Assembly: GCA_963707915.1 (NCBI GenBank)
Contig: OY970178.1
Coordinates: 3,094,103-3,158,102 of the forward strand
DNA length: 64,000 bases
Direction: 5' to 3'
Source: Candidatus Eiseniibacteriota bacterium
Lineage (GTDB): Bacteria > Eisenbacteria > RBG-16-71-46
Both the position numbers and the translations under genes were made by a program. The stretch's first letter is position 1, and each line of letters opens with the position of its first letter. This document shows positions 3,120 through 23,644 of the stretch, one piece after another. Below the pieces are notes generated by a model, which was not told the DNA's origin, did not search any database, and saw only the letters and a program-made list of their open reading frames with translations.

Positions 3120-5483
3120 CTAGGACGTCAGCGGCTGGTGCCGGTCGAGGGCCTCGCGCAGCTTCTGTGCGATCTGCTGGATCCGGTAGGGCTTGGCCAC
3201 GAAGCTCATCGCGCCCGCCTCCATCCACGAGGACTGGCTCTCGACCGTGGCGTAGCCGCTCGCGATGACCACCGGCAGGGCCGGCCGCAGCCTCCGCACC
3301 TCGTGCAGGACCCGTTCCCCCGAGATGCCCGGCAGCGTCAGGTCGAGCAGCATCACGTCCACGTGCGGCTCGCCCAGGCGCAGGATCTCCAGCGCCTGCT
3401 CCCCGGTCTCCACCGCCACCACGTCGAACCCGCGCTGCTGCAGGCCCGTGCGCGCCAGCGCCCGCAGGCTCGGCTCGTCGTCCACCACCAGCACGGTCTC
3501 GTGGCCGCGCGCGGTCGCCGCCGCCGGCACCAGCAGCGGCGCCTCGTCGGCCGTGTCCACCGGGAAGACCGCCCGGAACGCGGTCTCGTCCGGGCCCGCC
3601 GCGGTCACCAGCCAGCCCCCGTGGGCCCGCATGATGTCCTCGACGATGGTGAGCGTGAGCCCGGCCCGGTCGGGCGCCGGCTCCACCGCGCGACGCGTCC
3701 GGCGGCCGGGCGTCGTGTTCAGCTCGAGCGTGACGGCGTGGCGCGGCTCGCCCGCGCCGAGCGCCTCCTCCGGGGGGCGCGCCTGCTCGACCAGGCGCGT
3801 CGCCAGCGTGAGCGTGCCGCCCGCGCCGATCCGGTCGCGCACCTCCTGCACGAGGTTCACCAGCACCTGCTGGAGCAGCAGCGAATCGCCCAGCAGCAGC
3901 GGCAGCTCCGGCGCCAGCCGCAGCGTCAGCGAGGCGGACGGGTCGAGGGCGCTGCGCAACACCTCGTAGGCGTCCTCGATCACCCGGTTCAGGTGGAGCG
4001 GCAGCCGCTCGAAGCGCGCACTGCGGCTGAACTCCAGCAGCGCCCGGGTGAGGCGCGATGCCCGCTCGGTGGCGCCGACGATCTGCGCCGCCGCCTCGTG
4101 CCGCGGATCGGGCTCGGGGCTCTGCTCGAGCAGCAGCGTGCCGAAGCCGAGGATGGTGCCGAGCAGGTTGTTGAAGTCGTGCGCGACCCCGCCCGCCAGC
4201 CGGCCCATGCTCTCCATCTTCTGCGCCTGCGTGAGCCGGCGTTGCATCACCCAGCCCGCCGTGATGTCCTCCGCCGTGAGGACGCGTCCCACCACGGCCC
4301 CGCTCGCGTCGTGCAGCGGCCCGGTGTAGGTGCGCAGCACGCGCAGGGGCTCGTGCAGCTCGGCGACGTACTCCTCGGCCTGGTCGCTGGTGAGCCGGGG
4401 GACGGACTCGCCGGCCCCGCCGCCCTGCAGGAGCCGCAGCAGGTCGGGCGTGGTCCGCGCCAGCGGGGTGCCCGGCCGGACCGGCTCGTCGAGCCGCAGC
4501 ATCTCGGCCAGGCGCCGGTTGCACAGGGCCACCTCCGCCCGGCCGCGCCGCAGGCGCGCCACCAGCACGCCGGTGGGGATCGCGTCGAGGATGTGGCGCA
4601 GGTGCGCGCGCGACTCGGCCAGCTCCTGCTGGAGCGCGTGGCGGGCGCTCAGGTCCTCGATGAATCCCTGCGCCCGGTCGGCCCACGTCTGCTCGCCGCG
4701 CACCGGGACCACGTGGTTCACCAGGTGGGGCAGGTCGCGGCGGTCGCGGTGCACCCCGGTGAAGTGGATGTCGAAGGGCAGGCCGGCGGCGACCCCGGCG
4801 CGGAACTCCGCACGCACCCGCTCGCGGTCCCCGGGGTGGGCCAGCTCGTCCCACGCCCCGTGGCGCCGCAGCAGCTCCGCGGGCTGGTGCCCGAAGAGGC
4901 GCTCGACCGCGGGGCTCACCTCGATCAGCCGCTCCTCGGGCAGCGCCATGGTCCAGGCCACGCCCGGCAGCGCCTCGGCGGCCGCGCGCTGCAGGCCGTC
5001 GGCCGCGCGGACGGTGGCGCGCGCGCGCAGCGCGGCGGTGGTGTCGTGCAGGTGCAGGAGCATGCTCCCGTCCGGCAGGCGCAGCGCCTCGACCTGGCAC
5101 TGGAGCGGCTGGCCCTCGAGGTCCGTCAGCGTGACCTCGTCGCGCAGCGGGCCCGCGCCGTCGGCCAGCCGCCGGGGAACGTCCGCGTCGCCGAGCACCC
5201 GGGCCAGCAGCGCGGACTCGAGCACCGAGCGGCCGCGCAGGCGGCCTTCGGGCAGGCGGAGCAGGCGGTCCGCGGCGGCGTTCACCATCCGGACGATGAA
5301 GTCGGGCCCGAACAGGATCATCGGGTCCGCCGTGGCCTCGAAGAACGGCGCGAGCGCGGGGTCGGCGGCGGGGGGGCCGCCGCCGCTCTCGCCGGGGGAC
5401 GGATGGCGCGCGGGCGGGAGCCCGACGATCAGCGGATGCGCGGCGAGGAAGTGCCAGGCGGACCGCACTCCGGTGGATCTCAT
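3120..5483 (-). CDS. hybrid sensor histidine kinase with PAS domains, HisKA/HATPase_c core and C-terminal receiver domain
   Basis: PAS-like repeats, an H-box (GGVAHDFNNLLGTILGF), a HATPase region and a receiver domain (VLVVDDEPSLR...DVMLLDLTLPGISG...). N-terminal start is uncertain. Confidence 0.8.
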   Translation of the reverse strand: MRSTGVRSAWHFLAAHPLIVGLPPARHPSPGESGGGPPAADPALAPFFEATADPMILFGPDFIVRMVNAAADRLLRLPEGRLRGRSVLESALLARVLGDADVPRRLADGAGPLRDEVTLTDLEGQPLQCQVEALRLPDGSMLLHLHDTTAALRARATVRAADGLQRAAAEALPGVAWTMALPEERLIEVSPAVERLFGHQPAELLRRHGAWDELAHPGDRERVRAEFRAGVAAGLPFDIHFTGVHRDRRDLPHLVNHVVPVRGEQTWADRAQGFIEDLSARHALQQELAESRAHLRHILDAIPTGVLVARLRRGRAEVALCNRRLAEMLRLDEPVRPGTPLARTTPDLLRLLQGGGAGESVPRLTSDQAEEYVAELHEPLRVLRTYTGPLHDASGAVVGRVLTAEDITAGWVMQRRLTQAQKMESMGRLAGGVAHDFNNLLGTILGFGTLLLEQSPEPDPRHEAAAQIVGATERASRLTRALLEFSRSARFERLPLHLNRVIEDAYEVLRSALDPSASLTLRLAPELPLLLGDSLLLQQVLVNLVQEVRDRIGAGGTLTLATRLVEQARPPEEALGAGEPRHAVTLELNTTPGRRTRRAVEPAPDRAGLTLTIVEDIMRAHGGWLVTAAGPDETAFRAVFPVDTADEAPLLVPAAATARGHETVLVVDDEPSLRALARTGLQQRGFDVVAVETGEQALEILRLGEPHVDVMLLDLTLPGISGERVLHEVRRLRPALPVVIASGYATVESQSSWMEAGAMSFVAKPYRIQQIAQKLREALDRHQPLTS

Positions 5484-8312: not shown

Positions 8313-8353
8313 GGGGGCGCCTCGCAGGAGGCGCCCCCGCTCGTTGTTTTGTC
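8313..8353. terminator. bidirectional intrinsic terminator between the convergent TonB-receptor and cytochrome genes
   Basis: Perfect 10-bp GC stem GGGGGCGCCT/AGGCGCCCCC (8313-8322 / 8329-8338) with a 6-nt loop, followed by TCGTTGTTTTGTC. The opposite strand also carries a T-rich tail (TCCGTTTTCGGTG). Confidence 0.6.
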
Positions 8354-8388: not shown

Positions 8389-9477
8389 CTACCGCTTGAG
8401 CTTCGGATTGCTCATCGCCCGCTGCGCGTGGGCGGCCGTGAGCCCCTCGGTCTTCGAGTCGGCGCCGCTGATGAAGTTGATCGAGGACTGCAGCAGCCCC
8501 ACGATGTACTTCGGATTGTGCACGCCGTGGCTGCGGTCGTCCTGGACCAGGATCAGGTTGTACACCGCGCCGGCCGAGTCGGCCGACGTCTTCACGGCCG
8601 CCGGCGTCGCGGGGCCGCTCGCATTCGCCGTGACCAGGTTCGCGGCGACCAGGCGCGTCTGCAGATCCAGGATCAGGGCGTCCACCTCGTCCTGCGAGCG
8701 CCCGCTCCCGGCGCCGACCTCCGCGAAGTCGCCGATCTCGCCGTGGCACTTCAGGCAGGCCTCGGTGTTGAGGACCTCCCCGCCGTTCAGCTCGTAGGCC
8801 ATGTTGAACGAGTGTCCGCCCACGACGTTCTGGAGCGTCGTCCGCATGTGGCAGTCGAGGCAGCCGTCGGTGGTCGCGGAGCGGTGGTTCGTCCGCTCGT
8901 AGGTGTAGCCGGCGTACTCGTAGCCGTTCGAGCCGATCAGCATGTCACCCTGTGGGCCGTGGTGCGGGCCGAAGCGGTTGCTCAGCGTGGTCCGCGCCGG
9001 AGCGGCGGCGATGTAGGTGCGGATGTCGCGCCGCGAACGGTGGCAGGCCAGGCAGAGGTTGCCGCCCTTCAGGTCGTAGGTCGCGCCGTTCATCAGCGTC
9101 GCGACGGTCGTCCAGCGCACGCGGAAGTCGCCGTTGGTGTGGGGCGCGTGGCAGGTGAAGCAGTGGATCGACGTCGGGTTCTCGACCACGTCGGCGATCG
9201 GGGCGCCGGTCGCGCGGGCCACGAAGCCCTCGCTGGTGTGGCAGCCCTTGCAGTCGCCGTCCTTCTCGTTGAGGGTCTCGCCGCTCGCGTGCTTGGAGTG
9301 CTCCCACTGCTGCACCGCGGCCACCAGGAACGTGCTGGTGTCGGAGTGGCACTCGAAGCAGCTCTGCGGTCCCGCCACCACCTGCTGGACGCGCGTGATG
9401 TTGCGCGAACACGCGGCGAGCGCGAGCCCGAGCACCGCGATCGCCGCCAACGCCATGAGTCTCTTGAACGCCACCAT
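8389..9477 (-). CDS. hexaheme c-type cytochrome, probable outer-membrane lipoprotein
   Basis: Start MVAFKRLMALAAIAVLGLALAACS (lipobox LAAC) with GGAGGAGG upstream. Six CxxCH motifs (CFECH, CKGCH, CFTCH, CLACH, CLDCH, CLKCH). Confidence 0.8.
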   Translation of the reverse strand: MVAFKRLMALAAIAVLGLALAACSRNITRVQQVVAGPQSCFECHSDTSTFLVAAVQQWEHSKHASGETLNEKDGDCKGCHTSEGFVARATGAPIADVVENPTSIHCFTCHAPHTNGDFRVRWTTVATLMNGATYDLKGGNLCLACHRSRRDIRTYIAAAPARTTLSNRFGPHHGPQGDMLIGSNGYEYAGYTYERTNHRSATTDGCLDCHMRTTLQNVVGGHSFNMAYELNGGEVLNTEACLKCHGEIGDFAEVGAGSGRSQDEVDALILDLQTRLVAANLVTANASGPATPAAVKTSADSAGAVYNLILVQDDRSHGVHNPKYIVGLLQSSINFISGADSKTEGLTAAHAQRAMSNPKLKR

Positions 9478-9521
9478 CTCCGTGTCCTCCTCCGTGGTTG
9501 GCAACTGTCGCCTGGTCCGGT

Positions 9522-11081
9522 CTACTTCAGGTGTAGGTTGTATCCGACGTTGATGCGCAGCACGTTCGCCGTGTAGTAGCGGTCCAGCAGGATGTAGTCG
9601 TCGTAGTTGTAGGCGTTGTACTTGAGCTCGAGGATGTACTCGTCCAGCAGCGTGTAGGCGCCCTCCAGGAACACGATCGACTTCTCGATGTCGAGGTCCC
9701 CGCCGATGTCCATGTAGGTCGCGCCGCCGGCGAGCCGCAGGCCCTTGACCCGCGCGAACTCGACCCGCCCCGTCACGAACTGGCTCTCGGTGTGGAAGCC
9801 GGCGGCGAGGTCCTTGTAGTCGTCGTCCGAGTAGCTGTAGTCGGCCGAGAGCGCTCCCCAGGCCGTGATCTCGTAACGGCCGAAGGCGTTCACGGCGTCG
9901 CCGTCGACGGTGACGTTCAGGTCGGGGAACTCGCGCTCGCGCCGCGAATAGCCGCCGCCCAGGGTGACGCCCTCGCGGGGCTGCACCTGGAGCTTCGCGC
10001 GGACCTGCGAGGCCTCGACGTCCTTGAGGAGGGTCAGCTCCTCCTGGTCCTTCTTGACGCGGCTCGCGTAGTCGACCTTGGCGTTCACGACCTTGCCGTA
10101 GCGGAATGCCGTCCCGACGCGCCAGTTGTGGTAGCTGGTGAGCGTTTGGTCGTCGTCGTTGGTCTCGTAGCCGTAGCCGCCGCTGAACTGGCCGTACCGA
10201 TAGAGCCAGGTCGCGTCGAAATCGTTCTGGAATCGGTCGGTCATCAGCCCGCTGGACGGGTCGTCGGTGCGGTTCGCATCGAAGCCGTAGCGGAACCGGA
10301 AGGCCTCGACCGGCTCGACCACCCCGGTGTACTGGAAGCTCGACATCGTGAAGTCGCGGTCGCGGTCGGAGTGCGAGCGGGTGCCGTAGGACGCGCGCAG
10401 CAGGTGGGTCCACTTGTCGTAGAACAGGCAGGGCGAGTAGAGCCGGGCCGACACCACCTGCCCGTTGCGGTCCGCCGCCGGGACGAGCTCGTCGCGGAAG
10501 GCCGACGCGCGCAGGCTGATCGCCCCGCCCCGCCGCCCCTTGTGAACGTCCGCCGCGATCTCGCCGGTCCTCAGCGCGTTGTCGTACCCGCTCCCCAGCA
10601 CGCTCAGCGTGCCGGACGGGTAGGGCAGGCGGTCGCCGTCGCGCGTCAGGACGCCGAAGCCTCCCGAGAGCCCCAGCCAGGCATTCGGCGTGAACTGGGC
10701 GTTCGCCCTCCAGTCCTTGCGTCCGGAGTTGACGAGGCCGCCCGGGGAGAAGATCTGCCGGTGCTGGTCGAAGGCCGAGGTGAGCTTGAAGGTGCCCGGC
10801 ACGCGGAAGACGAGGTCGCCCTGCCGCGAGTCCAGGTTGAGGTCGCGCAGGTCGAGCGAGAAATAGTGACCGCGATCGAGGGCGCCGCTCAGGCTGATCT
10901 GGGCGAGGGAGAACCCGTCGTAGATGTTGTAGGTCTCCTGGACGGCGGAGCGGTCGCCGGTCTGGTTCATGATGATGCCGCCCAGCTTCACGGTGCCGTC
11001 CAGCGTGCCGGCCCAGGCGGCGGTCGCGGCCAGCGTGACGGCGAGCGTGACGCATGTGGCCGTAATCTTGGTCGTTCGCAT
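9522..11081 (-). CDS. outer-membrane beta-barrel protein (porin-like partner of a porin-cytochrome conduit)
   Basis: Signal peptide MRTTKITATCVTLAVTLAATAAWA, then alternating amphipathic beta-strand pattern over 519 aa. The start lies 12 nt after the upstream cytochrome stop. Confidence 0.7.
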   Translation of the reverse strand: MRTTKITATCVTLAVTLAATAAWAGTLDGTVKLGGIIMNQTGDRSAVQETYNIYDGFSLAQISLSGALDRGHYFSLDLRDLNLDSRQGDLVFRVPGTFKLTSAFDQHRQIFSPGGLVNSGRKDWRANAQFTPNAWLGLSGGFGVLTRDGDRLPYPSGTLSVLGSGYDNALRTGEIAADVHKGRRGGAISLRASAFRDELVPAADRNGQVVSARLYSPCLFYDKWTHLLRASYGTRSHSDRDRDFTMSSFQYTGVVEPVEAFRFRYGFDANRTDDPSSGLMTDRFQNDFDATWLYRYGQFSGGYGYETNDDDQTLTSYHNWRVGTAFRYGKVVNAKVDYASRVKKDQEELTLLKDVEASQVRAKLQVQPREGVTLGGGYSRREREFPDLNVTVDGDAVNAFGRYEITAWGALSADYSYSDDDYKDLAAGFHTESQFVTGRVEFARVKGLRLAGGATYMDIGGDLDIEKSIVFLEGAYTLLDEYILELKYNAYNYDDYILLDRYYTANVLRINVGYNLHLK

Positions 11082-11093
11082 TCGTGCCCCGTC

Positions 11094-12041
11094 CTAGAAC
11101 TTGTGGTGGCAGCCGACGTTGAAGCAGCCTCGAAGCGACTCGCTCAGGAACAGGCGGCTGGTGTAGGAGCCGTGGATGTCCGTGTGGCAGTCATTGCAGG
11201 GCATGCCCGCCCATCTCGTCCCGTGCATCGGGTTCGAGTTGTGCCGCGGGACCGAGTGGCACTGCGTGCACAGCTGGAAGTGGGGCGCCTCGTAGGGCTG
11301 CTTGAGCATCCGCGGCAGGTTCGAGCCGTGGGGCTCGTGGCAGGTCACGCAGCCGCCCTCCTCCGTCGAGTAGTCGAGGGTCGCCGGGTGCTCGTAGGGG
11401 AACGGCCCCTCGAACTCGGCATGGCACTTCATGCAGACGTTCGTGCCGTTGGTCGCCAGCTGGCGGCGCGTGGCGTCGAGGGTCAGGTGACACTCGCTGC
11501 ACTTGACGATGCCGTCGTTCACCGGGTGCCGGTACGACCGGGAGAACTGCCCTTCGACGTCCTTGTGGCAGCCCAGGCACAGGCCGCTCTCGGCCTGCTT
11601 GAGCAGCGCCGGGTGCTTCGACGCGTGGACACTGTGGCACGTGCTGCAGTTGAGGTCGTTCGCCGCGTGGGCGTTCTTCTCGAGCATGTTCTGCTGGTGC
11701 GCGTTCTGGTGGCACCCCGAGCACACGCGCGCCTCGGCCGCCGCGCCGCTCTTCGAGGGGTTGGCCATCGGGTACTGGGCCGGGTCCTCGTCCCAGTGGC
11801 GGCTGTCGCCGGCATGGCAGTCCGTGCAGGCGACGCGCGCCGTCGGACCGTCCAGCCCGCCGGCCGGCATCCGGTGCCCGGTGGTGGCGAGGGTCAGGTC
11901 CTGGCCGGTGTGGCAGGCGAGGCACGCCTGGCTGACGCGGGGCTTGCCCTGCGCCGCGGGAGCGCCATTCGCCACGGCGAACGACGCGACCAGCACGACG
12001 CAGGCGATCAGCATCGAGGACGCGGATCGGCATGAAGTCAT
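11094..12041 (-). CDS. decaheme c-type cytochrome (periplasmic)
   Basis: Ten CxxCH motifs plus one CX4CH, and a signal peptide MTSCRSASSMLIACVVLVASFAVANG. Start chosen at the ATG whose complement is at 12039-12041; the annotated ORF extends to 12119 and 12014 is an alternative start. Confidence 0.75.
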   Translation of the reverse strand: MTSCRSASSMLIACVVLVASFAVANGAPAAQGKPRVSQACLACHTGQDLTLATTGHRMPAGGLDGPTARVACTDCHAGDSRHWDEDPAQYPMANPSKSGAAAEARVCSGCHQNAHQQNMLEKNAHAANDLNCSTCHSVHASKHPALLKQAESGLCLGCHKDVEGQFSRSYRHPVNDGIVKCSECHLTLDATRRQLATNGTNVCMKCHAEFEGPFPYEHPATLDYSTEEGGCVTCHEPHGSNLPRMLKQPYEAPHFQLCTQCHSVPRHNSNPMHGTRWAGMPCNDCHTDIHGSYTSRLFLSESLRGCFNVGCHHKF

Positions 12042-12485
12042 GTGGGGCGTTGGCAACGCGACTCCTTCCGAGAGTGGGTCCGGAATGCGACTTCCGTATC
12101 GCTGCGTCGTGAGCGGCACCAGGTGGCGGCCCGACCGGTTGATGGGGCGCGTGATGGCGGCTCGCGGCCGAAAGGCATTCGCGTCGGGCTCGGAGGTGGA
12201 GACGTCCGGAGCTTGTCAGGCCCGCTTCCGCAATGCCGTGTTCGTGATCGTGGATCGAGCGCCATCCCTGCGCGCATGACGTGCACTATAGCGCAGAACG
12301 AAAGCGAAGTCTCCGTAGTAATACCGACCCACCTATCATCGCCCCGCCCCGGGGAATCTTGAGCGATATCGGCGTCCGCATGACGCTTCCGTCGATTCGG
12401 CCGCGCGGTCAAGTTGCGTCCGGCTAAACACGGTGGCGTCGATGGATTCCGCAATGGTGGCCTCATCCGCCCGAGGGGCGGGCCG

Positions 12486-15555: not shown

Positions 15556-18500
15556 TCAGTCGCGCTTCGGCCCCATGGAGGGGTCGTGGCACTGGATGCA
15601 CAGCTCCCGGGTCGGCTCGTGCGTCAGCAGGGAAGGCTGGTCGCTCGAGTGGGGCAGGTGGCAGCCGACGCAGTCGAGCGGCTCGTTGGTGCGCGGGTCC
15701 ACGCCTCCCGAGACCTTGTGGAAGTGCTTGGACGTGTCCGAGTGGCACTGCCGGCACAGCGTGTCCACGTCCTCGGTGAGCAGCTTCTTGTGCTTCCCGC
15801 TGTGGGGATCGTGGCACGTCGCGCAGCCCTGCCCGAGCGCGGCGTGCACGTTCTTCCGGCGGAACGGGCGGGGATCGTGGCACTGGAAGCAGAGCTTCTC
15901 GCCCGCGCGCTTCAGCACGCCGGTCGCCATGCCCGCGTGCGCTCCGTGGCAGGAAAGGCAGGCCTCGCGCGACTGCAGCGGCGCGTGGACGACGGGCGCG
16001 GAGAGCCACGCTTTCTGCCCCTCGTGGCAGCGGAAGCACAGGTCGGGCACCGGCTGAGTCGTCGCCCCGGTCTTGCGCTCGCCATGACACTCGACGCACC
16101 TGCGCTGCGCGAAGGGCATGTGCGAGACGGGCTTGAGCATGCCGGGCCGGCCCGTCGCTCCGACGTGCGGATCGTGGCAGTCCACGCAGTTGGCCTTCGC
16201 GAGGGCGAAGCCCTGGTGCTTCGCCAGGAGCCCCTGCTTCTCGATCGAGTGGCAGGCGGTGCAGAGCGCGGCCCCCTGGCGCTTCGTCATGCCGGGCTCG
16301 TCGGTGCCGTGGCTCGCGTGGCAGGTCGAGCAGAGCCCCATGGCGACCGGCGCGTGGGGCTTGCCCTGCGCGATGCGGGTCTGCAGGTCCGCGTGGCAGG
16401 TGAAGCACAGCGCGCCGGTGCGCTGCTTCAGCAGCGCCGGGTTGGCGCTCTCGTGCGGCTCGTGGCAGGTCGCGCACTGGCCCGCGGCCGCGGGCGGGTG
16501 CCCGTGCTTGAGCCGGGCGTCGGCGACGGCCCCGGCATGGCACCGGACGCACAGCCGGATGGGCTGGGTGACCAGCAGCGCCGCGCGGTCGGAGGCGTGC
16601 GGCGTGTGGCAGGCGACGCAATCGCCCTTCGCGACCGGCGGATGCACGTGGCCGGCGGCCGCGCCCTGCGGTGTGGCCTTCTTCTTCGGGATCTGGTGGC
16701 ACGAGGCGCACAGCGTGGCCGCCGGGCGCGCCAGGTTCAGGGCCCCGGGCGCGCCGGTCTTCCCGTGGCACTTGGTGCACTCCTTCGACCCGAAGAACGG
16801 GTGTTCGCGGGCCGCCAGCAGGCCGGCCGACTTGGACGCGTGCGGGGTGTGGCACGAGAGGCAGTCGACCGCGGTCAGCGTGGCGCCGCCGTGTTTCCGG
16901 GTGAGGTCCGCGTCCTCCAGGTCGTGGCAGTCGCCGCACAGCGCGGGCACCTTCTTCGTCAGGGCGGGCGCCGCCACGCCGCCGTGGGGATCGTGGCAGG
17001 AGAGGCACTCGCCGCTCTCCACCGGGGGATGCACGGTGTCCCCTTCCTTGCCGATGCCGCCGTGGCACCGGGTGCACAGGGCGTTGGGCTCGTCGCGCAG
17101 CAGGGCCGCCCGCGACCCGCCGTGGGGCTCGTGGCAGGCCGCGCACTGCCCGGCCGCGGCCGGGGTGTGGGGTGCGGGGCCCTTGATCTTCGCGGCGATG
17201 TCGGCGTGGCACTTGGTGCAGAGGGTGGCCCCGCCGGTCGCGAGCAGGCGGTTGGTGAGCCCGCCGTGGGCGCCGTGGCACTCGAGGCACTGCCCGGCGG
17301 CTGCCGGCGCGTGCGGATGGGACGCCTTGGCCGCCATCACCTCCTGGCCGTGGCAGGGCGCGCAGATCTTCGCCGGCTCGCCGCGCAGCAGCTTGCCCTG
17401 GCCCGACTGGTGCGGGTCGTGGCAGGCGGTGCACTGGCCGGAGCGGAACGGCGGGTGCACCTCGAGGCCGACGAGCTTCTGCGCCAGGTCGGCGTGGCAG
17501 GTCCGGCAGAGCGCGCGCATGTCCTTGCGCAGGAGCCGCTCCTCGGCCGCCGAGTGGGGGGCGTGACAGCGCAGGCAGTCCTTCTTCGCGAACGGCGGGT
17601 GCGTCCCGGCGCTGTCGGCGCGGGCCCCGAGGTCCTTGTGGCAGTCGAGGCACATCGCGCCGTCGGCGGTCTTCAGGAGGTGCTCGCGGTCGGATCCGTG
17701 CGGCTGGTGGCAGCCGGCGCAGTCGCCGGCCGCGAACGCCTTGTGGACCACCGGCTGCTTCAGCGCTTCGGCGAGCTGGTCGTGGCACTGGCCGCAGAGT
17801 TCCAGCGGCTTCGACTTGAGCAGGCCCCGGGCGACCCCGCGGTGCGGGTCGTGGCAGGTGAGGCACTCGCCGCCCGCCGCCGGCGGGTGGGGCGTGGGTT
17901 TCTGGGACGCGGTCCGCACGTCGTCGTGGCAGGTGAAGCACAGCTCCGGCACCTCGGTGACGAGCTTCGCGCCCGCCTTGCCGTCCTCCATCGTGTGGCA
18001 GGCGTCGCAGCTGCCCTCGGCCGCGGGCGCGTGCGCGGTCTCGCGCCGGAGCGCGGTCTCGGTCGAGGCGTGCGGGTCGTGGCAGTCGAGGCAGGCCAGC
18101 CCGGCGACCGTGAGCTTCGCGTGCGCGGTGGCCGTGTCGGCGGGCTTGTGGCACGTCGCGCAGAGCTGGTCGGCCGGGCCGCGGAGCAGCCCGGCGTCCT
18201 TCGAACCGTGGGCGTCGTGGCACGCGTAGCAGTCGCCCCGGGCAAAGACCGCGTGCACGTGCGGCTTCTTCGCCTGGGCCGCGGCCTCCTCGTGACAGGG
18301 GAAGCAGGTGGCTTGCGGGCCCCCGGCGCGCAGCAGCCGCGGCTGGTCGGAGGCGTGCGGATCGTGGCAGGAGAGGCACTTGCCCTGTTCGTAGGCGGCG
18401 TGCGCGTGCTCGGGCTTCGCGGCCGTCTTCAGGGCGTCATGGCAGCCGAAGCACAGCTCCGGCGCCGGCTTCACCAGGATCAGCTTCTGCAGGAAGCCGT

Positions 18501-18717
18501 GGCTCTTGTGGCAGGCCGCGCAGTCCACCTTCGCGACCGGCGCGTGAACGAACTTCCTCGACCCGTAGTCCTGCTTCGCGTCCTTGTGGCAGTCGTAGCA
18601 GGGACGGCCCTTCGGCACCGGCTTCGCGGCGTCGACGTGTCCGGGCAGCAGCAGCGGGACGGCGCCGAGCAGTGCTGCCGCGAACAGCGCGCGCAGGAGA
18701 CGGGCGGGGCGGCTCAT
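15556..18717 (-). CDS. giant multiheme c-type cytochrome, 1053 aa, 42 CxxCH motifs in repeated c7-like units
   Basis: Signal peptide MSRPARLLRALFAAALLGAVPLLLPGHVDA. 42 CxxCH motifs counted by eye, spaced about 18-22 aa apart with intervening His ligands (…DPHAS…). Confidence 0.9.
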   Translation of the reverse strand: MSRPARLLRALFAAALLGAVPLLLPGHVDAAKPVPKGRPCYDCHKDAKQDYGSRKFVHAPVAKVDCAACHKSHGFLQKLILVKPAPELCFGCHDALKTAAKPEHAHAAYEQGKCLSCHDPHASDQPRLLRAGGPQATCFPCHEEAAAQAKKPHVHAVFARGDCYACHDAHGSKDAGLLRGPADQLCATCHKPADTATAHAKLTVAGLACLDCHDPHASTETALRRETAHAPAAEGSCDACHTMEDGKAGAKLVTEVPELCFTCHDDVRTASQKPTPHPPAAGGECLTCHDPHRGVARGLLKSKPLELCGQCHDQLAEALKQPVVHKAFAAGDCAGCHQPHGSDREHLLKTADGAMCLDCHKDLGARADSAGTHPPFAKKDCLRCHAPHSAAEERLLRKDMRALCRTCHADLAQKLVGLEVHPPFRSGQCTACHDPHQSGQGKLLRGEPAKICAPCHGQEVMAAKASHPHAPAAAGQCLECHGAHGGLTNRLLATGGATLCTKCHADIAAKIKGPAPHTPAAAGQCAACHEPHGGSRAALLRDEPNALCTRCHGGIGKEGDTVHPPVESGECLSCHDPHGGVAAPALTKKVPALCGDCHDLEDADLTRKHGGATLTAVDCLSCHTPHASKSAGLLAAREHPFFGSKECTKCHGKTGAPGALNLARPAATLCASCHQIPKKKATPQGAAAGHVHPPVAKGDCVACHTPHASDRAALLVTQPIRLCVRCHAGAVADARLKHGHPPAAAGQCATCHEPHESANPALLKQRTGALCFTCHADLQTRIAQGKPHAPVAMGLCSTCHASHGTDEPGMTKRQGAALCTACHSIEKQGLLAKHQGFALAKANCVDCHDPHVGATGRPGMLKPVSHMPFAQRRCVECHGERKTGATTQPVPDLCFRCHEGQKAWLSAPVVHAPLQSREACLSCHGAHAGMATGVLKRAGEKLCFQCHDPRPFRRKNVHAALGQGCATCHDPHSGKHKKLLTEDVDTLCRQCHSDTSKHFHKVSGGVDPRTNEPLDCVGCHLPHSSDQPSLLTHEPTRELCIQCHDPSMGPKRD

Positions 18718-19238
18718 CGCGCGGACACGGTGTCGTGGCCGGCCGGCCGCGTCGGGGGCGCGGTGGGCGGGCTCGCCGGGGCGACGGCCGACGTGTCGAC
18801 CATGATCGGCGCCCGCCCGGTGAACTCGACCTTGACCACCTGGAAGGCGAACATGGACTTGCGCGCGAAGTGGGGCGGCATCTTGAGCAGCGCCCAGGTC
18901 GTGTCCTGCGGCGCCTTCTTCTGGAAGACGATGATGCGGAAGGCGGGGTTGTCGGGCTGGTCGGACTTCGACATGATCTTGCGGGTGGTGAGGTCCATGG
19001 TGAAGTCGGGCACGTACTCGACCACGCGCGCCGAGAAGTCGGTGTCACCGAGGATGAAGTCCTGCTTCAGCTTCACCCGCTGCAGGTCGCGGAAGTCGTG
19101 GAAGACGCGATGCCGCACCAGCAGCGTCACGGCGTCCAGCCGCGCCCCGCCCGCGGCCGCCGGCGGCTTCACCTGCGCCTGGGACGGGAGGACCGCGACG
19201 AGTCCGATCAGGAGCCCGAGCCACCACGTGCGTCTCAT
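18714..19238 (-). CDS. small secreted/periplasmic hypothetical protein
   Basis: Start MRRTWWLGLLIGLVAVLPSQAQ with AAGGAAGGA upstream. Stop overlaps the giant cytochrome start by 4 nt. Confidence 0.55.
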   Translation of the reverse strand: MRRTWWLGLLIGLVAVLPSQAQVKPPAAAGGARLDAVTLLVRHRVFHDFRDLQRVKLKQDFILGDTDFSARVVEYVPDFTMDLTTRKIMSKSDQPDNPAFRIIVFQKKAPQDTTWALLKMPPHFARKSMFAFQVVKVEFTGRAPIMVDTSAVAPASPPTAPPTRPAGHDTVSAR

Positions 19239-19867
19239 CTGGATCCTTCCTTGCGGGGGCCCGGCGCGCGGCGCGCGCCCGCCACCCTGAAGTCGCCGAG
19301 CATGTCCTGGGCGAGCAGCGAGACCAGCCGTTCCGTGCTCATGACCCGTCCCCAGCCGAACAGCGTCTCGTGGTCCTCGCCGGAGCGGAAGTGCACACCG
19401 GCCCACAGGACCCGGCCGCTCGCGGCCTCGACCAGCCGCAGCGTGCCGCCCACGGCGGGCACGTCCAGGTCGCCGCTGCGCAACCGTCCGCTCTCGAGCA
19501 CGCTGCCCATCAGCAGGTAGGGGGCGCGCAGGGCCTCGCCCAGCTCGCGGACCTGCGCCGGCGTGAGCGAGCCGCCCGAACGGATGCCCAGCGAGTCCAT
19601 CGCCTCGTCCACCTGCCCGGGCTCGGCCATCTCGAGGGCGCCGCTGGCGACCAGCTGGGCGAAGAACACCTTGCTGAAGAGCGCGCCCTGCTCCTCGCGG
19701 CCCGCGAGGTTCTCGAACGGCACGAGCGCGGCGCGCGGGTGGTCCGCGGGCACGGTGCCTCCGGCGGAGCGACGCAGGGCCGGTGCGCTCCCGGCGCACA
19801 GCACCGCCAGGCCGGCGAGGACGGCGAGCCGCAGCCCGATCGCGATGCGCCCGTGACGTCGAGCCAT
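19235..19867 (-). CDS. lipoprotein with an LpoB/CsgG-like (TolB-N-like) fold
   Basis: Signal/lipobox region ...LAVLCAGSAP, then the motif AALVPFENLAGREEQG. Paralog of the next gene. 4-nt overlap with the downstream gene. Confidence 0.6.
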   Translation of the reverse strand: MARRHGRIAIGLRLAVLAGLAVLCAGSAPALRRSAGGTVPADHPRAALVPFENLAGREEQGALFSKVFFAQLVASGALEMAEPGQVDEAMDSLGIRSGGSLTPAQVRELGEALRAPYLLMGSVLESGRLRSGDLDVPAVGGTLRLVEAASGRVLWAGVHFRSGEDHETLFGWGRVMSTERLVSLLAQDMLGDFRVAGARRAPGPRKEGSR

Positions 19868-19869
19868 GG

Positions 19870-20460
19870 TCAGAACGCCCTCCCGCGCAGCCGGGCCACG
19901 AGCTCGTCGCAGGCGTCCTGCGTCAGCCGTCCCAGCGAGCGCGAACTCTGGCCGAGGACCGGGATGCGGCTCTTGCCGCGCTTCGCGATCGAGGACCGCC
20001 AGACCACGTTCCCGGTGTTGGCGTCCAGCAGCTCCGCGTCGAACGACAGGACCGGGATGTCGCCGTTCTCCGTGCGCTGCATGGTGTACTCGCTGACCGC
20101 GCCGCGCAGCACGCCGGTGGCTCCCAGCCGGAGGGCCACCTCCTTGAGCTTCTGCAGGTCATACGTCCCGTCCGTCTCCGGCATGACGTTGTCCTTCAGC
20201 AGGGCGGTGCGGAACTCCTCGGGCTGCACGATCTGGTAGCGGTCCGTCATGATCAGCGAGGTGATGAAGGCGCGCGTGACGCGCGGTCCGGCCAGCCCCT
20301 CGCTGCTCAGGTTGGTGAACGGCAGCACGGCGATCCTGGTGTAGAAGGCCATGTCCGCGTCGGGATTCAGGTAGACCCGGGAGACCGGGGCGCAGGAGAG
20401 CAGGAGCAGGCCCAGGGCGGCGGCCGCCATGCGTGCCAGAGGATGGTGCTTCCCGGCCAT
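19870..20460 (-). CDS. lipoprotein with an LpoB/CsgG-like fold (paralog of 19235..19867)
   Basis: Lipobox LLLSCAP, then RIAVLPFTNLSSEGLAG, a motif typical of the LpoB/CsgG/GNA1162 lipoprotein fold. Confidence 0.65.
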   Translation of the reverse strand: MAGKHHPLARMAAAALGLLLLSCAPVSRVYLNPDADMAFYTRIAVLPFTNLSSEGLAGPRVTRAFITSLIMTDRYQIVQPEEFRTALLKDNVMPETDGTYDLQKLKEVALRLGATGVLRGAVSEYTMQRTENGDIPVLSFDAELLDANTGNVVWRSSIAKRGKSRIPVLGQSSRSLGRLTQDACDELVARLRGRAF

Positions 20461-20461
20461 G

Positions 20462-22111
20462 CTACCTCCAGAGACTCTGGGACAAGGTCGCGCTCACCTG
20501 CCGGGCGCGGGTGGGAAGACCCGGGTCCGCCTGAGTGTAGCGAATCGTGGCGTGCAGGTCGCGGTTCAATGCCACGGCGAGCCAGGCGCCGTAGGCCTCA
20601 CGGCCGGCCGTGAGCGACGTGCCGGGGTCGCGCAGTTGCTGGTTCGCGCGGGTGTAGGTGCCGCTCGCCTGGACGGTGCGCGAGGGGGTCCACTGCACGC
20701 TGGCCTGCAGCGTCGAGCGGTCGGGCGCGTTGCGCACGAAGCCCCCGGCGCGGCCCCAGCTGCCGCTCGCCTGCAGCTTCTCCGAGGCCCGCCAGTCGAG
20801 GCTCGTCGTGTAGGTGGTCGAGGCCGGGCCGTCGCCCCGCAGCGTCGCGCCGGTGCGGTAGCGCCGCAGGTTCGCATTGAGGGTGACGGTGCGCAGCGGC
20901 ACCGCGCGCAGGCCGGCGGCGGTCTGCAGCGTCACCAGGGTCGCGGCCGGGCCGGTTTCGAGGCCCGCGCTGGGGCGGTCGGCCCTGGAGAGCGAGGCCT
21001 CGCCGAAGGCGTCGAACCCCTTCGAGAGCCGCATCCGCGTGTTCGAGCGGATGCTCTGGACCGGGCGGGCGCGGTCGCCGGGGAGCCAGTTCCACGACTG
21101 GTTCGCGCTCGCTCCCAACCTCCACCCGGGCCGGGCGTCGCCCTCGGCCGAGGCCGACGTGCTCAGGAAGCTCTCGGTCTCCTCGCTGCCCGCGACGTTG
21201 ACGCTGCGCACTCCGCCGCCGCCGGACAACTGCACCGCCTTCCAGGGCCGGTGGATGACGCTGAGTGAGCCGTCGTGATCGACCTCGGTCGTGGTGGCGA
21301 ACTGCGTGGTGCCCACGCTCCGGAAGCTGTAGGCGAGACTGGCAGAGGTCCGCTTGGAGATCGCCAGCCCCCCGTTCGCGGACGCGCTGTGCACGCGCGA
21401 GGTGGCGTCATGGGCCCCGTCGACCTGCCTGCGCGACTGGTTGTAGTCGTACTGGAGGACGGCATTCGCACGCCGGTTCTCGAGGCGCACGGTCGAGCCG
21501 GCGTTGACGTTCTCCTCGCTCCCGGTCCGCCGCCGCGCGCTGCGGTCCTCGTTGGCCAGGTCGCCGTAGCCCGCGTGGAGGTTCAGCCGCCCCAGGTCGT
21601 AGTTGGCCATCAGGCTGCGCCTCACGGCCGCTGTGCCCGGGAACGGGCCGCTCGCATCCTGGTTGCGACGGTTCCACGAGGCCGACAGCTGGGGAAGCCC
21701 GGCCCGCTGGAAGTAGCCCGTCAGGTTGGTCTCCTGCTGGCGGGTCGTGAGGTTGCGCGAATCGACGACCGTGATCGGCCGGTAGGAGCCGAACAGCCCG
21801 AACAGCGGATGGGCCAGGCGCAGGGAGCCCTGCGGGAGGATCTGGCGGTCGGGTCGTCCGATGGTGCGCTGGTCGGTGAACTGGAACCGGGACGAGAGCT
21901 CGTAGGCCTTGCGGAAGCGGCGGGAGTAGTCGAGTTGCACGGAGGTGAGCCACCATTCCACGTCGTTGGCCGGGTCCAGCAGGCTGAGCTTCGAGTATTG
22001 CACCTCGGCGACTCCCCGGATCTTCTGCTGGGCGTCAGCGGGCCCGGCGAGCAGAACGGCCGCCATCGATGCCGCCACCAGCCCCGCCCCCAGCGCTCTT
22101 CGCCGCATCAT
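20462..22111 (-). CDS. outer-membrane beta-barrel protein
   Basis: Start MMRRRALGAGLVAASMAAVLLAGPADA. 549 aa rich in alternating strands and in Ser/Thr/Asn/Gln/Tyr. Start overlaps the upstream cytochrome stop. Confidence 0.6.
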   Translation of the reverse strand: MMRRRALGAGLVAASMAAVLLAGPADAQQKIRGVAEVQYSKLSLLDPANDVEWWLTSVQLDYSRRFRKAYELSSRFQFTDQRTIGRPDRQILPQGSLRLAHPLFGLFGSYRPITVVDSRNLTTRQQETNLTGYFQRAGLPQLSASWNRRNQDASGPFPGTAAVRRSLMANYDLGRLNLHAGYGDLANEDRSARRRTGSEENVNAGSTVRLENRRANAVLQYDYNQSRRQVDGAHDATSRVHSASANGGLAISKRTSASLAYSFRSVGTTQFATTTEVDHDGSLSVIHRPWKAVQLSGGGGVRSVNVAGSEETESFLSTSASAEGDARPGWRLGASANQSWNWLPGDRARPVQSIRSNTRMRLSKGFDAFGEASLSRADRPSAGLETGPAATLVTLQTAAGLRAVPLRTVTLNANLRRYRTGATLRGDGPASTTYTTSLDWRASEKLQASGSWGRAGGFVRNAPDRSTLQASVQWTPSRTVQASGTYTRANQQLRDPGTSLTAGREAYGAWLAVALNRDLHATIRYTQADPGLPTRARQVSATLSQSLWR

Positions 22112-23511
22112 CGAGCATAGTTGATCGTGTACGACTCGGGATCGTGACACGTCGGCGAGCAGGTGCCGCCGCTGGCCGTCTCGGTGTAGGAGCCGATGCC
22201 CGGGTTGCGCCCCGTGGCGATGAGATGGCGCTGGTCGGGCGAGCCGTGCGTGACGTGGCAGGCGTAACAGGGGACGTGCTCCTCGCCGACGTGCTCGGCG
22301 TGGCCCTTGTCCACCCCGGGCTTGTTGAACCGCGAGAGGGCCCTCGTCGCCTCGGGCGCGCCCGGGTCCGCGTAGACTTCGGGGGTGTGGCAGGCGAAGC
22401 AGATCTCGCCGGTGCTCATCGTCCGCGGCTGGGGCGAGGCGGTGTAGGGCTGCGTCAGGATGTAGCGGTACGAGGAGCCGTGCGGCCCGCGCGTGGACCC
22501 GACGAAATCGCTGCCGTGGCAATCGCCGCAGCGCGTGAGGCTGGCGGCGCTCCAGCCGGGCGCGAACGCGCCGGCCGGGATCCCCGGGTTGCGGCCCGCG
22601 GCCTCGACCGGGTGGAACGACTCGTTCGCCGGGTTCAGGACCAGGGCCAGGTCGGTCTGCCCCGAGGGCTGGCTGGTCCAGGACGAATGGCACTTGAAGC
22701 AGAGCTGGTATTCCGCCACCGGCGCGCTCAGCGTATCGGAGCCGGCGGCGAACGTGAACGTGGGGGGCGTGCCCGCCGGGCCGTTCTGCACCAGCACCCG
22801 ACTCACGCCCAGGTTGGTGCGCGAGAGCCCGGGGGCGGCCGGCGTGGCGGGCCGGTCGGCGCCGGCCACGTGCGGGTTGTGGCAGTCGACGCACTCGGAG
22901 TGGCGCGCGTTCGCGGGCGAGACCCCGAAGTCGGCGGGATCGGATTCGGCCGGTCCCTTGTGGCGCCCGGAGTAGAGCCGCACCGGGTGCCGGTAGACCT
23001 TGGCGAGATCGGCGCCGATGTTGGTGGAAGCGGGCGCGCCGTCATGGCAGGTGAGGCAGAGAGTCTCCTCGCGCCCGATGGCGAGCGCCGGGATCAGCCC
23101 GCCGGCGTCCGACCAGCCGTGCGGGTCGTGGCAGTTGAGGCACTTGCCCTCCGCGCCCGGCTCGGTGCGTGGCGGGGGGGTGGGCCCCGGCCAGGCGGTC
23201 CCGGTGGCCGTGCCGTGAGAGGCGCCGGAGTACACCCAGGGCCCCGCGTAGCTGCCGGCCGTCCAGGGCTTGTCGTGGCAGCGGTCGCAAAGCGAGTTGT
23301 CGTCCGGGCCGAGCAGCGCGTGCCCGTAGACGACATCCCCCTGGCCGTGCACGGTGTGGCACTGGTCGCAGTCGCCCGCGTGCGCGCCCTGCGCCAGGAG
23401 CTTCTCGACGCCGGCGGGGGTGCGATAGGGATGCAGGGGCTGCGCTCCAGTCGCCAGCAGGCACACCAACGCCAGCCCCGCGAGGCTCGAGACGAGATCC
23501 CTCGGTCGCAT
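22108..23511 (-). CDS. multiheme c-type cytochrome (about 9 CxxCH plus 1 CX3CH)
   Basis: Start MRPRDLVSSLAGLALVCLLATGAQP, possibly a lipoprotein. Motifs CDQCH, CDRCH, CLNCH, CLTCH, CVDCH, CFKCH, CGDCH, CFACH, CYACH and CSPTCH. Confidence 0.8.
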   Translation of the reverse strand: MRPRDLVSSLAGLALVCLLATGAQPLHPYRTPAGVEKLLAQGAHAGDCDQCHTVHGQGDVVYGHALLGPDDNSLCDRCHDKPWTAGSYAGPWVYSGASHGTATGTAWPGPTPPPRTEPGAEGKCLNCHDPHGWSDAGGLIPALAIGREETLCLTCHDGAPASTNIGADLAKVYRHPVRLYSGRHKGPAESDPADFGVSPANARHSECVDCHNPHVAGADRPATPAAPGLSRTNLGVSRVLVQNGPAGTPPTFTFAAGSDTLSAPVAEYQLCFKCHSSWTSQPSGQTDLALVLNPANESFHPVEAAGRNPGIPAGAFAPGWSAASLTRCGDCHGSDFVGSTRGPHGSSYRYILTQPYTASPQPRTMSTGEICFACHTPEVYADPGAPEATRALSRFNKPGVDKGHAEHVGEEHVPCYACHVTHGSPDQRHLIATGRNPGIGSYTETASGGTCSPTCHDPESYTINYAR

Positions 23512-23591
23512 GCTGCCCAGATTAGCCCAGCGCGTCGAAAACCTCACGCTGCCCACCCGTCCCGGCCTGGAAGTGGATGCCCGATGGACAT

Positions 23592-23622
23592 CCGGCCGAC
23601 TCCGGGATGCGGAGCCGGCCGG
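23592..23622 (-). terminator. GC-rich hairpin just downstream of the OmcS-like gene (possible partial terminator or attenuator)
   Basis: 13-bp stem with one mismatch (CCGGCCGACTCCG / CGGAGCCGGCCGG) and a 5-nt loop. No U-tract follows. Confidence 0.35.
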
Positions 23623-23644
23623 ACCTTGCCCGATGTTGCGAGGC

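Follow-up and report, generated by a model that had tools for sequence, protein, structure and literature searches.

A probable compact and divergent MtrAB-type outer-membrane electron conduit in an Eiseniibacteriota genome

Two genes for multiheme cytochromes on either side of a gene for an outer-membrane beta-barrel raise the question of whether the three products form a path for electrons across the outer membrane and, if so, to which known conduit that path is related. We address this for three adjacent genes in a 64,000-nt stretch of contig OY970178.1 (3,094,103-3,158,102; hereafter the window, within which all coordinates are given). We consider it likely that the triad is a compact, divergent conduit of the MtrAB type, encoded in one operon.

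The three open reading frames described in the initial annotation are all present on the minus strand, at 8389-9477, 9522-11081 and 11094-12041 (or 12056, depending on the start codon), each with a GC content at the third codon position of 0.95-0.97 in the named frame. Reading the junctions directly from the sequence confirms the proposed order of cytochrome, barrel and hexaheme cytochrome and both spacings: the TAG of the first gene (11094-11096) is separated by 12 nt from the ATG of the barrel gene (11081), and the TAG of the barrel gene (9522-9524) by 44 nt, containing GGAGGAGG, from the ATG of the hexaheme gene (9477). For the first gene TTG at 12056 is a likelier start than ATG at 12041. 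The TTG lies 5 nt past GGAAGGAG and gives a product of 320 aa, while the ATG lies 20 nt from this Shine-Dalgarno sequence and gives 315 aa; the homologues are called at 319-321 aa. At the other end, an intrinsic-terminator hairpin at 8313-8338 (11-bp stem with 10 GC pairs, and a T-rich tail on each strand) stands between the stop codon of the hexaheme gene (8389) and the end of a convergent TonB-dependent receptor gene (8289). It scores on both strands, as expected from the earlier description of this receptor as flanking the module through a bidirectional terminator, and the terminator scan placed a terminator only behind the third gene of the triad. Upstream of the genes lies a non-coding leader of about 430 nt (12057-12485, minus strand), with a lower overall GC content (65.5%) and no codon-position bias (0.64/0.63/0.70). 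It is a putative promoter region, in which neither a sigma-70 consensus match nor an Rfam match was found. One operon is the best explanation for the three genes.

The limits of the module are also apparent from its relatives. In a survey of 25 distinct genome loci, where counts of neighbouring genes refer to loci with the flank recovered, the order, heme counts and spacing of the triad are kept in most of the approximately 25 loci from Eisenbacteria, Krumholzibacteriia and Gemmatimonadota. A cytochrome with ten CxxCH motifs precedes the barrel gene by 10-25 nt in every recovered flank (one gap measures 95 nt), and a Cys-anchored cytochrome with six CxxCH motifs follows it in all but one of these loci. 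The genes around the triad, in contrast, differ from locus to locus. Specifically, the TonB receptor and a PAS hybrid kinase are lineage-specific neighbours outside the module; the kinase gene (3120-5483, minus strand), which had been placed further upstream, in fact lies past the 3' end of the operon, and is adjacent to it only in the closest relatives. Nearby in the window are also genes for a secreted cytochrome with 42 hemes and for a CcmF-like protein, as well as a second cluster of barrel and cytochrome genes; an inner-membrane quinol dehydrogenase adjoining the module was not found in the window. No cultured organism appears to carry the family.

The first product (11094-12056, minus strand) has a cleavable-type signal peptide and ten CxxCH motifs in its 315-aa form, whereas shuffles of the same composition average 0.14 such motifs and never exceed 3. 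Judged by sequence, this periplasmic cytochrome is a homologue of MtrA/DmsE. It aligns to positions 3-257 of the 258 in NCBIfam TIGR03508 with E 1.3e-49, and its score of 169.0 bits, although below the curated trusted cutoff of 192.2 bits, is that of a clear homologue. A phmmer search against the 333-aa cytochrome chain (6r2q_A) of the Shewanella MtrCAB structure (PDB 6R2Q; Edwards et al., 2020, PMC7198977) gives E 2.9e-24, and in the pairwise alignment 10/10 CxxCH motifs are collinear with those of MtrA and most distal histidines align too.

The description of this protein as a decaheme cytochrome holds for its CxxCH motifs, but a conserved C-terminal CxxxxCH (C-F-N-V-G-C-H; 11106-11126, minus strand) brings the probable count to 11. 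The motif is found in 23/23 Eisenbacteria-type homologues and recurs as CYNSGCH in Latescibacterota, CFRTGCH in Zixibacteria and CFNAGCH in Chitinivibrionia, whereas nothing in MtrA corresponds to it in the alignment with 6r2q_A. Moreover, 22 cysteines and 22 histidines are kept in at least 91% of the 23 homologues, nearly all of them invariant, which matches 11 heme sites with 11 distal histidines. Given the family-wide CxxxxCH and the eleventh conserved distal histidine, the protein is thus probably an undecaheme cytochrome. We infer that the additional site is occupied by heme; this putative heme would lie at the wire terminus that in MtrA is farthest out.

The barrel (9522-11081, minus strand; 519 aa) is far less easily placed. 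Neither PF11854 nor TIGR03509, the MtrB/PioB models, matches it at E<=1, and a profile search with it against PDB sequences returned no match. PF11854 gives a weak signal in 8/26 relatives (best E 2e-6) with inconsistent registers, and the 23.5 bits that one relative scores against a cutoff of 23 are likewise register-ambiguous. The AF2 model (pLDDT 84), on the other hand, has 26 strands and a sheath-sized lumen, and it superposes almost end to end on MtrB, which also has 26 strands (PMC7198977) and is the closest solved fold. The link to MtrB accordingly rests on predicted structure together with the weak, register-ambiguous HMM matches in relatives, and the barrel is predicted from its model to sheathe the cytochrome. 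The missing family annotation, and the presence of TonB-dependent receptors, LptD and ushers among the structural matches, could instead suit a common substrate channel, or a barrel of the export or usher type, with the cytochromes as mere neighbours. We regard this as highly improbable: the structure prediction and comparison with MtrB that had been suggested for the locus yield 26 strands and an MtrB-like superposition instead of the 16-18 strands of an ordinary small-solute porin.

If the barrel is an MtrB-type sheath, it is a compact one. Strands account for 378 of approximately 495 mature residues in the model and the longest loops have 13-14 residues, in contrast to the long partner-docking extracellular loops and the length of about 650-800 aa that mark the MtrB family; chain B of 6R2Q has 649 modelled residues. 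The length is fixed within the family, at 504-557 aa. The loop between strands 1 and 2 (G-D-R-S-A-V-Q-E-T-Y-N; 10926-10958, minus strand) is among the most conserved stretches, with G42, D43, Q48 and E49 invariant, and distant relatives carry DEEGNxSVNQETFNLYEG at this point. In the model it contains a short helix at residues 44-46, which together with the short strands 3-4 recalls features of MtrB, where the corresponding loop forms a capping helix (PMC7198977). The mature barrel sequence contains no CxxC and a single unpaired cysteine. An N-terminal CxxC typifies the MtrB of metal-reducing gammaproteobacteria.

The initial annotation had compared the triad with the Oma/Omb/Omc conduits of Geobacter. 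The idea of a porin-cytochrome conduit survives this analysis, and the division of labour among a cytochrome in the periplasm, a barrel and a lipoprotein cytochrome is indeed that of OmaB/OmbB/OmcB, ExtABCD and ExtEFG; NCBIfam also gives a secondary match of the cytochrome to the Geobacter GSU2203 decaheme family (E 8.6e-41). The lineage, however, is that of Mtr according to TIGR03508, 6R2Q and gene order. A Geobacter-type Pcc complex (OmaB/OmbB/OmcB or an Ext analogue) unrelated to Mtr is very unlikely, since in the profile and sequence searches the cytochrome matched the DmsE/MtrA family and MtrA itself best, with ten fully collinear hemes. The barrel argues in the same direction, because its 26 strands and near end-to-end superposition agree with MtrB, whereas OmbB is described with about 20 strands. 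The heme counts also differ from those of the Geobacter complexes.

The third product (8389-9477, minus strand; 362 aa) has six CxxCH motifs and a lipobox, both in line with the earlier description. The lipobox, L-A-A-C, ends at Cys23, which is invariant in 26 homologues, and is followed by a conserved tether, C-S-R-N-I-T-R-V-Q (together 9385-9420, minus strand). In the homologue alignment R25 and T28 are invariant as well, and at least 90% of the sequences keep I27, V30 and E31, giving the motif C-x-R-x-I-T after the lipid cysteine. The cytoplasmic-membrane anchors considered earlier for both cytochromes are not borne out: neither has a membrane-spanning anchor, the first having a cleavable-type signal peptide and the second this lipobox. 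PF02335 matches residues 194-354 (35.2 bits, cutoff 24.1) and PF22113 gives a partial match to residues 65-150 (36 bits), and a profile search against the PDB finds OcwA (6i5b, E 6e-6) and NrfA (3e-4) over residues of about 200-331, that is, over the last heme motif and the C-terminal helix bundle. The AF2 model is poor (pLDDT 50), with this helix-bundle region as its sole confident part. OcwA, the cell-surface terminal reductase of Thermincola potens (PMC6703420, where 6I5B is cited), differs in having nine hemes, in not being a diderm outer-membrane lipoprotein and in acting without a partner barrel. The catalytic CxxCK or open distal site of the NrfA family is also missing: the hexaheme protein has no CxxCK, its six CxxCH are accompanied by six invariant non-motif histidines, all six hemes appear from the sequence to be bis-His, and given these conserved distal histidines no open catalytic heme is evident. 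We also considered an MtrC-like protein. The lipoprotein signal peptide (LAAC) is a trait shared with MtrC/OmcA/UndA, but six CxxCH in 362 aa differ from the 10-11 hemes of the four-domain staggered-cross, TIGR03507 (MtrC/OmcA/UndA) gives no match, PF22113, the Pfam model of these surface cytochromes, gives only the partial match above, and this candidate was rejected. Compared with the 10-heme, four-domain MtrC, the partner here has six hemes on an NrfA/OcwA-like scaffold.

On which side of the membrane this lipoprotein works is less certain than its presence. The conduit could consist of the cytochrome-barrel pair alone, with the hexaheme protein facing the periplasm, either on the inner leaflet of the outer membrane or on the inner membrane, and relaying electrons between the inner membrane and the wire instead of acting as a terminal reductase at the surface. 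Bacterial lipoproteins by default anchor facing the periplasm, and many homologues have Asp or Glu directly after the lipid cysteine, which in E. coli causes retention in the inner membrane, although exceptions to this rule exist. The genes that follow in mto clusters also specify partners in the periplasm or the inner membrane, and in one Eiseniibacteriota chromosome (L015) the pair occurs with no lipoprotein. Against this stands the variability of the protein. Distant relatives in Zixibacteria, Latescibacterota and Chitinivibrionia retain the cytochrome (10 CxxCH plus CxxxxCH) and a barrel of about 520 aa, while their lipoprotein cytochromes have 8 or 12 CxxCH and yet the same C-E-R-K-x-T start, so that its hemes range across the family from 6 to 12+. 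Among Eisenbacteria-type loci the lipoproteins are 31-83% identical, the barrels 47-78% and the cytochromes 49-79%. Of the three components the lipoprotein is hence the one that varies most in both sequence and size, a pattern of an environment-facing one. By sequence, the solved protein nearest to it is OcwA, a cell-surface reductase, and the putative eleventh heme would be at the end of the wire that corresponds to the outermost one in MtrA. We therefore find a periplasm-facing hexaheme protein possible but rather unlikely, and infer that it is located at the cell surface.

The direction of electron flow must be judged from related systems. In MtoAB and PioAB (Sideroxydans, Rhodopseudomonas) an MtrA-family cytochrome gene is directly followed by that of the barrel, as here, and there is likewise no MtrC homologue; MtrCAB has the order C-A-B instead of A-B-C, and the hosts here belong to the FCB superphylum. 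The barrels of MtoAB/PioAB, however, are long MtrB/PioB-family proteins recognized by HMMs. To our knowledge these systems have no dedicated lipoprotein multiheme cytochrome. The same architecture could thus serve inward transfer, by Fe(II) oxidation in the MtoAB/PioAB style or by uptake from Fe(II), minerals or partner cells: conduits of the MtrA family run both ways in nature, and the cytochrome-then-barrel order is that of mtoAB/pioAB. An mtrAB-like cluster with a predicted Mtr-like pathway has been described in the same superphylum, in Zixibacteria RBG-1, for which its authors favoured Fe(II) oxidation (Castelle et al., 2013, PMC3903129), and one Zixibacteria locus of our survey (L029) is in the same barrel family as the barrel in the window. 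FeGenie-type surveys call Mtr-like pathways in Zixibacteria, Eisenbacteria and Latescibacterota (PMC8478452, PMC9769843), and iron oxidases of the Cyc2 type have been reported in MAGs of Eisenbacteria (PMC9769843). The available parts of these three sources contain no structural analysis, describe no cytochrome outside the cell and make no reference to the compact barrel, the eleventh heme motif or the conserved lipoprotein tether.

The argument of Castelle et al. relied on an absent extracellular cytochrome, whereas in the loci studied here a multiheme lipoprotein is almost always present and grows to 8-12 hemes in relatives. Such a near-universal and expanded lipoprotein is a pattern more typical of mineral reducers. 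In addition, the Zixibacteria operon encodes a multiheme protein with an FdnI-like cytochrome b fused to it, together with a membrane cytochrome that resembles NrfH/NapC, candidate inner-membrane modules for quinol-linked electron transfer by their sequences. Inward use is a tentative alternative for these reasons, and the most likely role of the MtrAB-type conduit is extracellular electron transfer linked to respiration, with acceptors that are insoluble or cannot cross the membrane, for example Fe(III)/Mn(IV) oxides or humics; outward flow would fit the lipoprotein pattern.

In the mechanism that we propose, a secreted MtrA-like cytochrome with ten canonical hemes and a probable eleventh on the C-terminal CxxxxCH would, by analogy with MtrAB, thread the lumen of the 26-strand, almost loop-free barrel, which would insulate the heme wire across the outer membrane. 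The wire would give electrons to, or take them from, the six-heme, all-bis-His lipoprotein with its NrfA/OcwA-type scaffold, and the conserved lipidated N-terminal peptide would hold this protein at the barrel. More speculatively, the family may represent a minimal 'plug-and-socket' conduit found across the FCB superphylum, in which an 11-heme wire and a near-loopless 26-strand barrel serve interchangeable domains of 6, 8 or 12+ hemes, each on a shared lipidated C-x-R-x-(I/V)-T peptide that docks on or threads the barrel. The Pfam and NCBIfam models for MtrB/PioB miss the barrel of this conserved family. If the plug-and-socket arrangement is correct, surface cytochromes would be attached in a manner unlike the docking of MtrC on the long loops of MtrB, and extracellular electron transfer would be widespread, and under-counted, in abundant uncultured phyla of soils and sediments.

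The three open reading frames of the module follow one another on the minus strand, with the MtrA/DmsE-like cytochrome first (11094-12041, 315 aa), the beta-barrel second (9522-11081, 519 aa) and the hexaheme lipoprotein last (8389-9477, 362 aa). In a window of about 71% GC, the third codon positions of each reach 0.95-0.97 GC in the named frame, a bias that is absent from the 444 nt upstream of the three. Reading the junctions directly gives 12 nt between the stop codon of the first cytochrome and the ATG of the barrel, and 44 nt, including GGAGGAGG, between the barrel stop and the ATG of the hexaheme gene. The initial annotation was thus accurate in proposing three minus-strand genes with these gaps, as it was in describing a decaheme cytochrome, a barrel and a hexaheme cytochrome with a lipobox. 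A likelier start of the first gene, a TTG at 12056, lies 5 nt past the Shine-Dalgarno sequence GGAAGGAG and yields a 320-aa form, which agrees with the 319-321 aa of its homologues. Upstream of the operon is an unusually long leader of lower GC (12057-12485, about 430 nt, 65.5%); a sigma-70 scan of this leader found no consensus match, and an Rfam scan of the window gave no hit.

On the other side of the module, 3' of the hexaheme stop, a hairpin at 8313-8338 (11-bp stem with 10 GC pairs, T-rich tails on both strands) is common to the module and to a convergent TonB-dependent receptor (Plug and barrel domains) ending at 8289, which bears out the earlier placing of the receptor beyond a bidirectional terminator. 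The PAS hybrid kinase had been placed upstream; it lies instead at 3120-5483 on the minus strand, beyond the operon on its 3' side. Receptor and kinase recur in the nearest relatives only, and were rejected as parts of the module since the adjacency is confined to three related loci (L001, L003 and L005).

The first cytochrome contains 10 CxxCH motifs, whereas shuffles of the same composition average 0.14 and never exceed 3. It matches almost the full TIGR03508 profile (DmsE/MtrA family, NCBIfam) with E = 1.3e-49, at a score of 169 bits that falls below the curated cutoff of 192 bits. When all PDB sequences were searched, the sole strong match was chain A of 6R2Q (E = 2.9e-24), the 333-aa cytochrome of the Shewanella baltica Mtr complex, with which all ten CxxCH motifs pair one-to-one in the alignment, as do most of the distal His. 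Judged by its sequence, the protein is an MtrA homologue.

Aligning the window protein with 22 homologues from related loci reveals 22 Cys and 22 His that are conserved in at least 91% of the sequences, nearly all of them invariant. These correspond to the ten CxxCH motifs, one C-terminal CxxxxCH motif (C-F-N-V-G-C-H, 11106-11126, minus strand) and eleven His outside the motifs. MtrA has no counterpart to the CxxxxCH, which is also present in distant relatives from Latescibacterota, Zixibacteria and Chitinivibrionia. The motif is known as a site of c-type heme attachment in cytochromes c3. Eleven sites and eleven spare His fit all-bis-His ligation, and the protein is probably an undecaheme cytochrome in which the CxxxxCH site would be occupied as well. 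Because the heme at the extracellular end of MtrA is its C-terminal one (PMC7198977), the extra site would lengthen the wire outward.

For the barrel, a search of the family profile against all PDB sequences gave no match at E ≤ 10, so that any link to MtrB had to rest on structure. The protein also has no match in Pfam or NCBIfam, including the MtrB/PioB models PF11854 and TIGR03509. An AlphaFold2 model computed from an alignment of 26 sequences (pLDDT 84, pTM 0.72) has 26 beta strands after the signal helix, with 378 of the roughly 495 mature residues within strands, tight turns on both faces, and 13-14 residues in the two longest loops. Strands 3-4 are short. The strand 1-2 loop, which ranks among the best-conserved parts of the family (G42, D43, Q48 and E49 are invariant), holds a short helix. 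MtrB itself has been described as a sheath of 26 strands whose N-terminal strands are shorter and whose strand 1-2 loop carries a capping helix (PMC7198977). The top Foldseek match of the model in the PDB is MtrB (6r2q_B, E = 5e-15, TM 0.75), followed by TonB-dependent receptors and LptD at TM of about 0.5. PF11854 (MtrB_PioB) is weakly matched by 8 of the 26 barrel relatives (best E 2e-6, one at the gathering threshold), in inconsistent registers. We take the barrel to be distantly homologous to MtrB, or at least structurally equivalent to it, and stripped down to its strands. That it is instead an unrelated porin is unlikely; an ordinary solute porin, the outcome that the initial annotation had singled out for checking, is contradicted by the 26-strand model and by MtrB as its top match.

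The barrel family is small and uniform in size: of 1.84 billion cluster representatives searched exhaustively by HMM, only 180 matched, and every full-length member is 504-557 aa long. The homologue search gave no 100% match because clustering at 90% had filed the exact barrel sequence of the window under a 37-aa fragment as cluster representative; the hexaheme, unlike the barrel, did give a 100% match.

In the third protein six CxxCH motifs lie downstream of the lipobox L-A-A-C. The lipid Cys, the six motifs and six more His (H63, H113, H172, H198, H222 and H320) are invariant in 26 homologues, and CxxCK does not occur in the protein. This combination makes a role in electron transfer, rather than catalysis, likely, and on the same grounds an NrfA-like nitrite or sulfite reductase was rejected. 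The AlphaFold model is poor (pLDDT 50) save for the C-terminal helices, and a sequence profile took the place of a fold search. In Pfam, residues 194-354 match Cytochrom_C552 with 35 bits, and there is a partial MtrC/MtrF domain II/IV match of 36 bits; the family profile matches OcwA (6I5B, E 6e-6) and NrfA (3e-4) in the region of the last heme and the helix bundle. OcwA is a cell-surface terminal reductase of Thermincola that belongs structurally to the NrfA family (PMC6703420). On these profile matches, the hexaheme is a lipoprotein on an NrfA/OcwA-type scaffold. Right after the lipid Cys it carries a conserved peptide, C-[S/E/D]-R-[K/N/T]-[I/V]-T-x-[V/I]-E, which we call the tether.

The nearest relatives are metagenome-assembled genomes labelled Candidatus Eisenbacteria, with 74-79% identity. 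When one genome per GTDB species was scanned, 25 distinct loci were found in Eisenbacteria, Krumholzibacteriia and Gemmatimonadota bins. A 10-CxxCH cytochrome is upstream of the barrel at every locus with a recovered upstream flank, at a distance of 10-25 nt (usually 12 nt; 95 nt at one locus), and a Cys-anchored 6-CxxCH cytochrome is 3' of the barrel at all but one locus with downstream sequence; the genes around the module otherwise differ between loci. The lipoprotein is the most divergent component (31-83% identity), the barrel and cytochrome of Eisenbacteria-type loci having 47-78% and 49-79% respectively. A profile built from distant barrel representatives retrieves further members in Latescibacterota, Zixibacteria, Chitinivibrionia and 'FCB group' bins, in which an MtrA-like cytochrome (10 CxxCH plus CxxxxCH) lies 10-11 nt 5' of a barrel of about 520 aa. 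The downstream lipoproteins of these distant loci vary (8 CxxCH in 387 aa; 12 CxxCH and two CxxxxCH in 705 aa) and start with the same C-E-R-K-x-T peptide, and the Zixibacteria lipoprotein also has the same helix motif at its end.

Some individual loci are of note. In a complete Eiseniibacteriota chromosome (OZ245046, locus L015, 7570-11064) the cytochrome-barrel pair occurs without a downstream lipoprotein cytochrome; its neighbours are instead a polytopic membrane protein and an NrfH/NapC-like membrane multiheme protein of 506 aa. In Latescibacterota CP070677 (locus L028, 7756-10409) the lipoprotein cytochrome is cut to 103 aa, with a C-E-R-K-T-T start and one CxxCH; the genes after it are of the DnaB-like helicase and ResIII types, suggesting that a mobile element inserted into the module. 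In a Zixibacteria genome (locus L029, 638-4831) genes oriented like those of the module lie ahead of it; they encode a TetR regulator, a fusion of an 11-heme cytochrome with an FdnI-like cytochrome b, and an NrfH/NapC-like membrane cytochrome with 6 hemes. The fusion and the NrfH/NapC-like protein could serve as inner-membrane quinol-linked modules, in which case this one locus may encode a complete pathway from the inner membrane to the outside.

The window holds other cytochrome-related genes. About 3.5 kb upstream of the module, past an NHL-repeat protein and a TMEM260-like glycosyltransferase, a 1053-aa secreted cytochrome (15556-18717, minus strand) carries 42 CxxCH motifs in repeated DmsE/MtrA-like and paired-CxxCH units (TIGR03508, 9 stretches). 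A separate minus-strand barrel-cytochrome cluster at 18714-24718, presumably the 'first' module of the initial annotation, comprises a 6-heme cytochrome (23645-24718), a cytochrome with 9 CxxCH and a CSPTCH (22108-23511), a predicted 549-aa barrel (20462-22111), two LpoB-like lipoproteins (19870-20460 and 19235-19867) and a 174-aa protein. The 549-aa barrel matches no family. BLASTP shows no similarity between it and the 519-aa barrel, and on that ground the two were rejected as paralogues. Adjoining the cytochrome clusters is a CcmF-like cytochrome c maturation protein (25277-27487, plus strand; Cytochrom_C_asm and CcmF_C), and an IS481-family transposase (32615-33556, minus strand; rve and LZ_Tnp_IS481) lies amid glycosyltransferase genes.

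Homology, predicted fold, heme-ligand counts and synteny are what the analysis shows, and we consider it quite probable that the module is an Mtr-type trans-outer-membrane electron conduit. A Geobacter-type Pcc, the system to which the module had initially been likened, is unlikely, judged from the TIGR03508 and 6R2Q matches. In an Mtr-type conduit, we infer, the secreted MtrA-like wire would insert in the 26-strand sheath and cross the outer membrane, bringing its C-terminal, probably eleventh, heme to the outer rim of the barrel. In Shewanella, MtrC docks on long MtrB loops, whereas the barrel here lacks such loops; the conserved lipopeptide would hold the hexaheme lipoprotein at the outer rim, where it could pass electrons between the wire and external substrates. 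Outward transfer combined with a surface-exposed lipoprotein is somewhat favoured within the Mtr-type reading. It has two main competitors: the module may instead carry electrons inward, for uptake or Fe(II) oxidation, as put forward by Castelle et al. for the mtrAB-like cluster of Zixibacteria RBG-1, or the lipoprotein may face the periplasm and act as a relay.

The general idea is not new, since mtrAB-like or general 'iron-cycling genes' have been reported in Zixibacteria, Eisenbacteria, Latescibacterota and Gemmatimonadota metagenome-assembled genomes (PMC3903129, PMC8478452, PMC9769843). A literature search of incomplete coverage turned up no account of the module in Eisenbacteria or Krumholzibacteriota; for Zixibacteria and related phyla it yielded mtrAB or iron-gene calls of a general kind only. 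It returned neither a near-loop-less 26-strand barrel family of about 520 aa that escapes the MtrB/PioB models, nor a family-wide extra CxxxxCH on an MtrA-like protein, nor NrfA/OcwA-type lipoproteins that differ in heme number and share one lipopeptide tether. Because the barrel fails PF11854 and TIGR03509 and the cytochrome scores below the DmsE-family cutoff, gene-centric surveys that need both are likely to under-count such modules.

On its predicted fold, the family shows that about 495 mature residues are enough for an insulated 26-strand sheath. It also suggests an 11-heme wire, and the conserved lipopeptide tether points to a docking element for swappable terminal cytochromes; all three would help the engineering of minimal electron conduits. 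Eisenbacteria, Krumholzibacteriota, Gemmatimonadota, Zixibacteria and Latescibacterota are common yet uncultured in soils, sediments and aquifers, and a conserved Mtr-like conduit, if true, would involve these phyla directly in the redox cycling of iron, manganese and humics.
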